NCBI GenBank assembly: GCA_010015805.1 | Contig: ML978128.1 | Location: forward strand, 1,798,001 to 1,862,000 | From: Rhizodiscina lignyota | Lineage: Eukaryota | Reading direction: 5' to 3' | Length of the DNA: 64,000 bases | Shown: one piece after another, positions 36,376 through 37,747 of the stretch | Numbering within the stretch: position 1 is the stretch's first letter | Layout of the letters: each line of letters begins with the position of its first letter | Notes under the pieces: generated by a model | The model's database searches: none | What the model saw: the letters and a program-made list of their open reading frames with translations, nothing else | What the model was told of the DNA's origin: nothing | Position numbers and translations under genes: made by a program

Positions 36376-37747
36376 ATGGCCGTCAACAATAATGCTGCCG
36401 GAGCGCAGCCGGCCCTCAAGTCCGACGATCCTATGGCGGGCATGGTCCATTCCGAGGCGCACTACTTTAACAGGTTCGAATCACGAAAATATTGCTCGTG
36501 TGGCCACAGCTAACTAAAAGTAAACAGGTTCGAGGTCTTGACGTTGTACACATGGCAGAAGCTAAATTCGATTTCAGCTATAACCACCATGGCATCCACG
36601 AGGAGATGCTGGTCAGTTGAGTCTATTTTTCAGCACGTCGAGAATCTGACTACAGGCAGAAAGATGATGTGCGCACTCGAGCATACCGCGATGCAATCTA
36701 CCAGAACGGCCACCTCTTCCGGGACAAAGTTGTCCTCGATGTCGGATGCGGTACAGCCATCCTCAGCATGTTTGAAGTCCCTCCCACTACATATTCTGCC
36801 CTAGTCGCGCCCTCCGGCGTACTGACTTACCACGTCGCAGGTTCGCTGTCAAGGCTGGCGCAAAGCATGTCATTGGCGTAGACATGTCGACGATCATCGA
36901 CAAGGCTCGCGAGATCGTGGCGGTGAATGGCATGTCGAACAAAATCACACTCATACAAGGCAAGATGGAGGAGGTCCAGCTTCCGTTCCCGAAGGTGGAC
37001 ATCATCGTATCGGAGTGGATGGGCTACTTCTTGCTCTACGAGAGCATGCTGGATACAGTGTTGTACGCTCGTGACAAGTACCTCAAGCCTGGCGGCCTAA
37101 TCTTCCCTGACAAGGCGACGATCTTCATGGCTGGCATCGAGGATGGCGAGTACAAGGAGGAAAAGATCGGGTGTACGTTCATTGGTGGTATATATCCTCT
37201 GCTGTGTACTAACTTTGATAGTCTGGGACAACGTCTGGGGCTTCGATTACACCCCCCTCAAAGCGACCGCCATGACCGAGCCTCTCGTCGACACCGTGGA
37301 CATCAAAGCCGTCGTCACTGACCCGAAAGCCGTCGTTATGCTCGACCTCTACACCGTCACACCCGCCGACCTGACCTTCACCGTCCCATTCACCCTCGAC
37401 GTGCGAAGAAACGACTTCGTGCACGCCCTCATCGCCTGGTTCGACATTGAGTTCTCCGCCTGCCACAAGCCCATCCGCTTCTCCACCGGCCCGCATACCA
37501 AGTACACGCACTGGAAGCAGACCGTGTTCTACCTCCAACATGTGCTGACTGTCGAATCTGCGGAGCAAATCTCGGGATCTCTTGAGAATAAGCCGAACTC
37601 GAAGAACAAACGCGACTTGGACATCAAGATCAAGTACAAGCTGGAGACGGATGACCCCATCAGATCTGTCGAGGGCCAAGCAGAGTACAAGATGTAAGTG
37701 TTTCATCCTTGATTAAAGACACATGCTAAGTTTTGTGCAGGTGCTAG
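36376..37747 (+). CDS. RMT1: Type I protein arginine methyltransferase PRMT1/Hmt1
   Basis: Contains [42 protein letters not shown] and the THW loop. Intronic intervals: 36474-36577, 36612-36659, 36770-36840, 37173-37221, 37693-37740. Ends YKMC*. Confidence 0.96.

Follow-up and report, generated by a model that had tools for sequence, protein, structure and literature searches.

The first intron of a fungal PRMT1 gene is doubled: positions 36474-36577, on the plus strand of the window (the whole 64-kb stretch of DNA that was analysed), consist of two abutting intron-like units of 54 and 50 nt, each with a donor, a branch site and a CAG acceptor. On all sequence criteria, the structure fits a pair of abutting introns with a zero-nucleotide exon between them. 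The explanation that we consider best overall, with a probability of roughly 0.5, is that a lineage-specific tandem duplication gave rise to the pair, that unit 1 is removed first, and that the structure is a tolerated accident without a control role.

Gene model and anatomy of the first intron

Removal of 36474-36577 together with three later introns gives a five-exon model that agrees letter for letter with P0004, a protein of 349 amino acids listed under the name Rhizodiscina lignyota, which we take to be a Dothideomycete. P0004 is obtained only if this interval is removed exactly. The gene encodes PRMT1, a protein arginine methyltransferase of the Rmt1/Hmt1 type, and many homologues are named type I arginine methyltransferase Rmt1. 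The motif YFNSYNHH, without an added residue at the junction, is found in 56 of the 68 homologues in which it can be read; another 52 homologues, mostly truncated or mis-predicted, lack the motif region. Model and homologues thus confirm the claim of an earlier, sequence-only reading that the frame needs removal of exactly 36474-36577.

The coding part of exon 1 (36376-36473) ends in AACAG, in phase 2 of the Ser codon of YFNS. Exon 2 (36578-36611) is uninterrupted here and is followed by intron 2 (36612-36659, 48 nt). The remaining gene (36660-37697) comprises exons at 36660-36769, 36841-37172 and from 37222 onward, separated by introns of 71 nt (36770-36840) and 49 nt (37173-37221). Homologue endings point to a probable terminal intron of 47 nt (37694-37740, GTAAGT...TGCAG), with which the protein would end in YKMC; KMC is the most frequent ending among the longer homologues (64). 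The P0004 model, which ends in YKM, likely misses this intron and the final codon. The other introns of the gene are thus 47-71 nt long, and all these features lie on the plus strand. The neighbouring genes presumably encode a guanine-deaminase-like amidohydrolase upstream (34415-36052, plus strand) and, on the opposite strand downstream, ribosomal protein L13 (38184-38870, minus strand).

Unit 1 (36474-36527, 54 nt, a multiple of three) reads GTTCGA...GCTAAC...AAACAG. Its branch motif GCTAAC occupies 36509-36514, with the predicted branch A at 36513 and the acceptor end 14 nt on. Unit 2 (36528-36577, 50 nt) reads GTTCGA...GCTAAA...TTTCAG; the last base of its branch motif GCTAAA (36561-36566) is non-consensus, the predicted branch A is at 36565, and the acceptor end follows after 12 nt. 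With these branch distances, and with lengths of 54 and 50 nt against a minimum of 46 nt for orthologous introns among the matches listed, both units have usable spacing and length, and reading the sequence bears out the earlier description of two complete intron-like units at these positions. The acceptor of unit 1 directly abuts the donor of unit 2 (CAG/GTTCGA, 36527/36528) within an interval that needs to be removed whole, as is expected of abutting introns.

Both junctions carry the 11-mer AACAGGTTCGA (AACAG/GTTCGA), which starts at 36469 and 36523 on the plus strand of the window and is absent from the minus strand of the 64 kb. The first copy (36469-36479) consists of the final 5 nt of exon 1 and the donor hexamer; the second (36523-36533) lies across the AG/GT pivot, with the zero-length exon at 36527/36528. 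No other AG/GT 11-mer of this sort is repeated in the window. Excision of unit 1 would regenerate a junction identical over 11 nt, so that the earlier claim of an identical, remade donor holds as far as the letters themselves can tell. The CAG acceptor of unit 1 belongs to the heptamer TAAACAG (36521-36527), which matches the end of exon 1, TTAACAG, at 6 of 7 positions.

The consequences of partial removal are also as had been claimed. In translation, a retained unit 1 brings in an in-frame TAA at 36511-36513, within the branch motif and the sole in-frame stop of the unit, and a retained unit 2 shifts the frame. An AAG at 36518-36520, 7 nt past the branch A of unit 1, is a possible alternative acceptor, the use of which gives a 7-nt microexon and a frameshift. 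A hidden microexon that restores the frame was therefore rejected, given this frameshift and the 56 of 68 homologues without an extra residue. Use of the AAG up to 36520 would in addition create a G/TAAAC donor, that is, a formal [D1,2]-like route, possibly a minor unproductive isoform. This route removes 105 nt and shifts the frame, and no [A2,3] fit was found among the AG/GT sites of the interval; a stwintron was rejected on these grounds, and the earlier statement that the interval fits neither type stands. Intron 2 serves as an in-gene control for the AAG question: it bypasses a CAG 6 nt past its branch A and ends at a CAG 10 nt past it.

One contig of sequencing run X1 spans 36200-37900 at a depth of 150 with zero differences and no joints, and this agreement rules out an assembly error or stutter, with the caveat that the present DNA may itself derive from X1. 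An Rfam search of 36300-36900 (E<=1) gave 0 matches, on which basis a complex intron of the snoRNA-host kind was rejected, and a tRNA search of the two units gave none. No stable fold was found in the doubled intron, as 194 of 200 shuffles fold equally well (z +1.68). The start of unit 1 (36472-36483, GGTTCGAATCA) resembles a tRNA T-arm, or the consensus of the Pol III B-box; the presence of the donor makes a chance resemblance probable.

Orthologous introns and genome-wide occurrence

Using the end of exon 1 as a search pattern, we obtained at least 111 metagenome loci. Exon 2 could be located in 105 of them, and six were dropped (three apparently unrelated, three incomplete). Among the matches listed, 3 of the 105 loci have no intron at the site and the other 102 yield 84 distinct introns in 51 clusters, to which the following counts refer. 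These introns are single, with a median length of 58 nt and a range of 46-132 nt. None of the 84 contains a pivot (a branch site with an internal AG/GT), and none comes from the same genus; AGGT occurs inside 5 of them, in no case with a branch motif upstream. Conservation of the internal AG/GT in orthologous introns, proposed earlier as a check on two-step splicing, is thus not found among these matches, same-genus genomes lying outside the sample. For 39 of the 84 introns, the best tblastn match is a protein that we presume to be from a Dothideomycete (the class labels are rough), and none is from a very close relative. By this comparison, the position of the intron is ancient and its doubling is not; an intron of ~50 nt at this position is ancestral across Pezizomycotina.

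The same introns indicate which signals are ordinary. Among the matches listed, GCTAAC, the motif of unit 1, is the commonest branch motif (23 of 79), and GCTAAA, the motif of unit 2, occurs in 1 of 84. The distance from branch A to intron end is 10-23 nt in 78 of 79 introns and 7 nt in the remaining one. Acceptors are TAG in 45, CAG in 38 and AAG in 1 of the 84, and AGs 3-8 nt past the branch A are skipped. The AAG at 36518-36520 would probably be skipped as well. The donor GTTCGA is not found in any of the 84 orthologous introns listed. Genome-wide, it accounts for 25 of 2292 AG/GT intron-like matches, at most about 1%, and this count is not above that of a backwards control (32). From its absence among orthologous donors and its unremarkable count, GTTCGA is classed as a weak donor.

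A further intron, here called B, lies 14 nt into exon 2 in 82 of the 105 orthologous loci listed, including all eight ranked closest to P0004, and is absent from the gene studied here. Because 19 of 84 loci have a single first intron (A) without B, loss of B is common in its own right and needs no link to the doubling. In the 82 loci with both introns, the 14-nt microexon between them encodes YNHHG, and gene callers often mis-predict the region. The three loci without the first intron (L086, L100, L111) also lack the following ones and have TC, not AG, before the site; either the introns were lost in a lineage or these are transcript contigs. One homologous protein, P0091, is mis-predicted; at its N-terminus it looks like exon 3 and intron 3 of the present gene read in the wrong frame, for which reason it likely comes from a close relative.

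How often such a structure might arise by chance was estimated from 1,000,000 simulated introns of 104 nt with the composition of the orthologous introns. An internal YAG/donor leaving both halves at least 45 nt long was present in 3055 of them, 100 of which also had a branch motif at an upstream distance of 10-23 nt. The identical 11-mer was seen in 2, and in combination with a branch site in 0. Chance alone might therefore produce a loose double at some place in a genome; it is very unlikely to have produced the present one.

Genome-wide enrichment of pivots was not detected: the pattern branch-YAG/GT-branch gave 27 matches against 39 in the backwards control, with patterns that require RCTRAY and GTDHG and so let weaker doubles escape. 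An upstream donor and a downstream acceptor accompany 3 of the 27 matches, namely the present site and the loci L130 and L119. Read by eye, L130 is a 13-nt coding microexon with an intron on either side, and L119 is one intron behind a coding exon; two matches of another pattern search (L113, L114) proved to be normal starts of exons with a donor-like sequence. The PRMT1 site is then the only full double among the 27, and the only one with a repeated junction. L130 (positions 1462-1586; G000:C9) belongs to an alcohol-dehydrogenase-like gene, and its microexon, flanked by two introns of ~55 nt, itself begins with GT.

Further copies of either unit were not found in the genome. Patterns of 21 and 24 nt with up to 3 mismatches recovered only the site itself, as did a DNA search with 341 nt; strongly diverged copies would be missed by these searches. 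With no second copy of either unit recovered by these searches, an introner-like or otherwise mobile intron family was rejected. An AT-rich repeat was seen in six copies (L118, L123, L124, L132, L141, L142), several of them near contig starts and with variants resembling C-to-T/G-to-A decay; the repeat is possibly subtelomeric and RIP-mutated.

Origin of the doubling

Tandem duplication is the likely origin of the doubled intron. The duplicated segment would have comprised the last 5-7 nt of exon 1 and all or nearly all of a ~50-nt intron. Exon 1 ends in CAG, and the copied exon end would have become the 3' acceptor of the first copy, abutting the donor of the second, with two U2 introns and a zero-nucleotide exon as the outcome. 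The length of 104 nt is about that of two units, by comparison with the orthologue median and the other introns of this gene, and the 54-nt period corresponds to one intron plus a few exon bases. Among the matches listed, identical donor hexamers are found in 25 of 1275 orthologue pairs (about 2%) and an intron end AACAG in 5 of 84 introns (about 6%), and this rarity makes the repeat point to a copying event. The AAG at 36518-36520 may be what is left of the acceptor that the first copy originally had.

The similarity of the units is confined to their signals: the junction matches at 11/11 positions, the branch region at 9/12, and the cores at chance level. The 9/12 match refers to the 12 nt ending at branch A, a window chosen after looking, and is reached by 6 of 378 orthologue pairs among the matches listed. 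The cores align with a score of 3, where shuffled sequences average 1.0 (p 0.36), and 97 of 378 listed orthologue pairs score at least as high; the score of the whole units, 26, is reached by 47 of 406 pairs. Among 29 listed orthologous introns, 4 and 2 align with the respective units as well as the units do with each other. Core similarity at chance level counts against a simple duplication. A duplication must then be old, with the signals alone kept, and preservation of this kind would suggest that the internal site is in use.

The same data can be read differently, with unit 1 as a 43-nt filler from the repair of a staggered double-strand break, flanked by an 11-nt target duplication and not copied from an intron. 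The exact repeat does break off abruptly after 11 nt and the cores cannot be aligned, as such an event would predict, and repair of staggered breaks with small insertions is described as a route of intron gain (PMC3596301). The filler would, however, have needed a consensus branch motif at the correct distance by luck (roughly 3%), and the length of one intron and the 9/12 match near the branch site by luck as well; moreover, the genome search turned up no copy from which it could have come. Since the well-placed motif and the right length would both be fortuitous, an old duplication is favoured, and we regard the filler as improbable.

A second alternative takes the pair to be the ancestral introns A and B, joined by loss of the intervening 14-nt microexon at that place and its restoration downstream. 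Exon loss has been proposed as the origin of juxtaposed introns in fungal snoRNA hosts (PMC3596301). In the present gene, joining would leave the number of introns unchanged, given the presence of B in 82 of 105 listed orthologous loci, among them the eight closest, and intron-B donors are often GTCCGT, GTCGGT or GTTCGT (18 of 63 among the matches listed). This must be set against the 14 nt, which persist 3' of unit 2, and against the scarcity of the repeated elements, introns A and B sharing their donor hexamer in only 1 of 65 listed loci and AACAG ending only 5 of 84 introns. B is also missing beside a single A in the 19 of 84 listed loci mentioned above, and such loss is common alone. We consider joining very improbable. 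Duplication of A and absence of B could also, with low probability, have one cause, if a partly spliced cDNA (A kept, B removed) recombined out of register between the CAG at the end of the exon and the one at the end of the intron, so that A was doubled and B lost together.

Splicing route, regulation and comparison with known systems

The anatomy makes two-step splicing plausible, and we lean towards the view that a substantial share of transcripts would be spliced in this way. The fungal spliceosome would combine the donor with whichever branch site and acceptor lie closest, so that unit 1 would leave first as a 54-nt lariat; its removal would remake the AACAG/GTTCGA donor, and unit 2 would follow as a 50-nt lariat. 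The 11-nt direct repeat can also yield an apparent 36473/36528 junction by template switching of reverse transcriptase. Unit 1 has the commonest orthologue branch motif and a CAG at the typical distance of 14 nt, with the AAG at 7 nt as a competitor. Intron definition is reported to select the smallest possible intron in fungi (PMC7138796), and juxtaposed short introns of filamentous ascomycetes are reportedly removed 5' first (PMC3596301). Among 42 ESTs of Euascomycete snoRNA hosts, 18 lacked intron I alone, 14 lacked I and II, and 10 lacked all, and in none had a later intron gone before an earlier one (PMC3596301); its authors caution that the pattern also fits one donor choosing among several acceptors (PMC3596301).

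Removal of the 104 nt in one step appears feasible as well, given that 9 of 84 orthologous introns among the matches listed are at least 85 nt long, and it would probably run in parallel, every complete route leading to the same mRNA. It is a further step, and one that we think rather unlikely, to suppose that the interval is spliced solely as one ordinary intron, its internal branch site, CAG and donor being unused relics. Such a supposition would agree with the existence of orthologous introns of 85-132 nt, with the P0004 annotation, which takes the interval out as a single block, and with the report that in animals a prior splicing event can suppress a regenerated donor (PMC8605326), which would penalise a recursive route. 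It agrees less well with the branch motif of unit 1, which is better than that of unit 2 (GCTAAC versus GCTAAA) and has its CAG at a typical distance, or with the preservation of the internal signals beside cores whose similarity has fallen to that expected by chance; the latter suggests use, although a site picked for its intactness biases the argument.

The sequence-only reading had gone on to propose an autoregulatory checkpoint, for which we find no support. In its selected form, PRMT1 would tune its own expression through methylated splicing factors, with retention of a unit leading to nonsense-mediated decay. Both single-retention products are indeed non-coding, and a fungal PRMT1 reportedly interacts with the splicing factor Luc7 (PMC13464437). 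Non-coding retention is nothing special, however, as any intron that is out of frame or contains a stop produces it, and a selected checkpoint is difficult to reconcile with a pivot in 0 of 84 orthologous introns among the matches listed. The literature found on fungal PRMT1 and splicing had no mention of 'intron retention', and a search for papers on a doubled intron or on splicing autoregulation in a fungal PRMT1 gene, in which subscription journals were thinly covered, returned none. We judge such a checkpoint highly unlikely. Hardly more probable is a young, lineage-specific loop, possibly of one-event origin, in which the pivot would be obligatory and unit 2, with its weak branch site, rate-limiting and sensitive to splicing factors methylated by PRMT1. 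Most likely, the structure is a tolerated accident and not a PRMT1 control circuit, the doubling being tolerated because every complete splicing route yields the same mRNA.

If two-step splicing holds true, the intron would be a compact natural test of intron definition: within 104 nt it combines a zero-length exon with a pair of donors that are identical and a pair of branch sites that differ in strength. A protein-coding gene of a filamentous fungus would then be an instance of recursive splicing with units of ~50 nt, and duplication of a whole intron could create zero-exon splice sites. The one-event cDNA recombination, if true, would show a new way in which repair with reverse transcripts can give rise to zero-exon introns. 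The value of the case is that of an additional example of a published fungal kind and of a convenient reporter; a conserved mechanism of regulation is not indicated.

The sequence-only reading had described AG/GT ratchet points as best known from long animal introns. Animal sites do lie in long introns (PMC8605326), but this framing omits published fungal cases: splicing across a zero-length exon has already been reported for short introns of fungi, in snoRNA hosts and in Cryptococcus BOT1. The ratchet points and RS-exons of Drosophila and vertebrates likewise juxtapose an acceptor and a donor, the first step remaking the donor (PMC8605326). They are described as lying in very long introns, as highly conserved, and as dependent on a cryptic exon whose downstream donor competes (PMC8605326), whereas the PRMT1 intron has 104 nt, lacks a conserved site and would need no more than intron definition. 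With this length and with a pivot in 0 of 84 orthologous introns among the matches listed, a ratchet point of the animal type was rejected.

The fungal snoRNA hosts (the snR41-snR70-snR51 cluster III, in Euascomycetes and Debaryomyces; PMC3596301, PMC5033589) are closer, as they too have short abutting U2 introns and are found in ascomycetes, including filamentous ones; in clusters of Candida and Debaryomyces, recursive splicing with an exon size of zero has been reported (PMC5033589). Their introns, which carry snoRNAs in non-coding hosts, are described as conserved over many species and are traced to the deletion of exons (PMC3596301). The doubled PRMT1 intron differs in lying in a protein-coding gene, without Rfam matches, in one lineage, and with a repeated junction that points to duplication. 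BOT1 of Cryptococcus neoformans is a coding gene as well, in which one annotated intron is reported to be two introns around a zero-nucleotide pivot (10.1101/224170). That intron is 375 nt long (210 + 165) and comes with junction and branch evidence (10.1101/224170), whereas the PRMT1 units, of 54 and 50 nt, are known from their sequence.

Fungal stwintrons ([D1,2], [A2,3] and sensu lato; PMC7138796, PMC6616335) also consist of two U2 units spliced consecutively by intron definition, and small duplications have been proposed as their origin (PMC7138796, PMC6616335). They are nested, the inner intron interrupting or adjoining a signal of the outer one, and the inner intron must leave first (PMC7138796, PMC6616335). 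The PRMT1 units, in contrast, abut, and either order of removal restores the frame; abutting introns are treated as a type separate from stwintrons in PMC6616335. Finally, the tandem duplication of proto-splice sites (PMC2891723) likewise supplies new splice sites through a duplication that contains AG/GT. In that case, the duplicated stretch is coding sequence, of which one copy turns into an intron (PMC2891723), whereas in the PRMT1 case the duplicated unit would be an existing intron together with a few exon bases.
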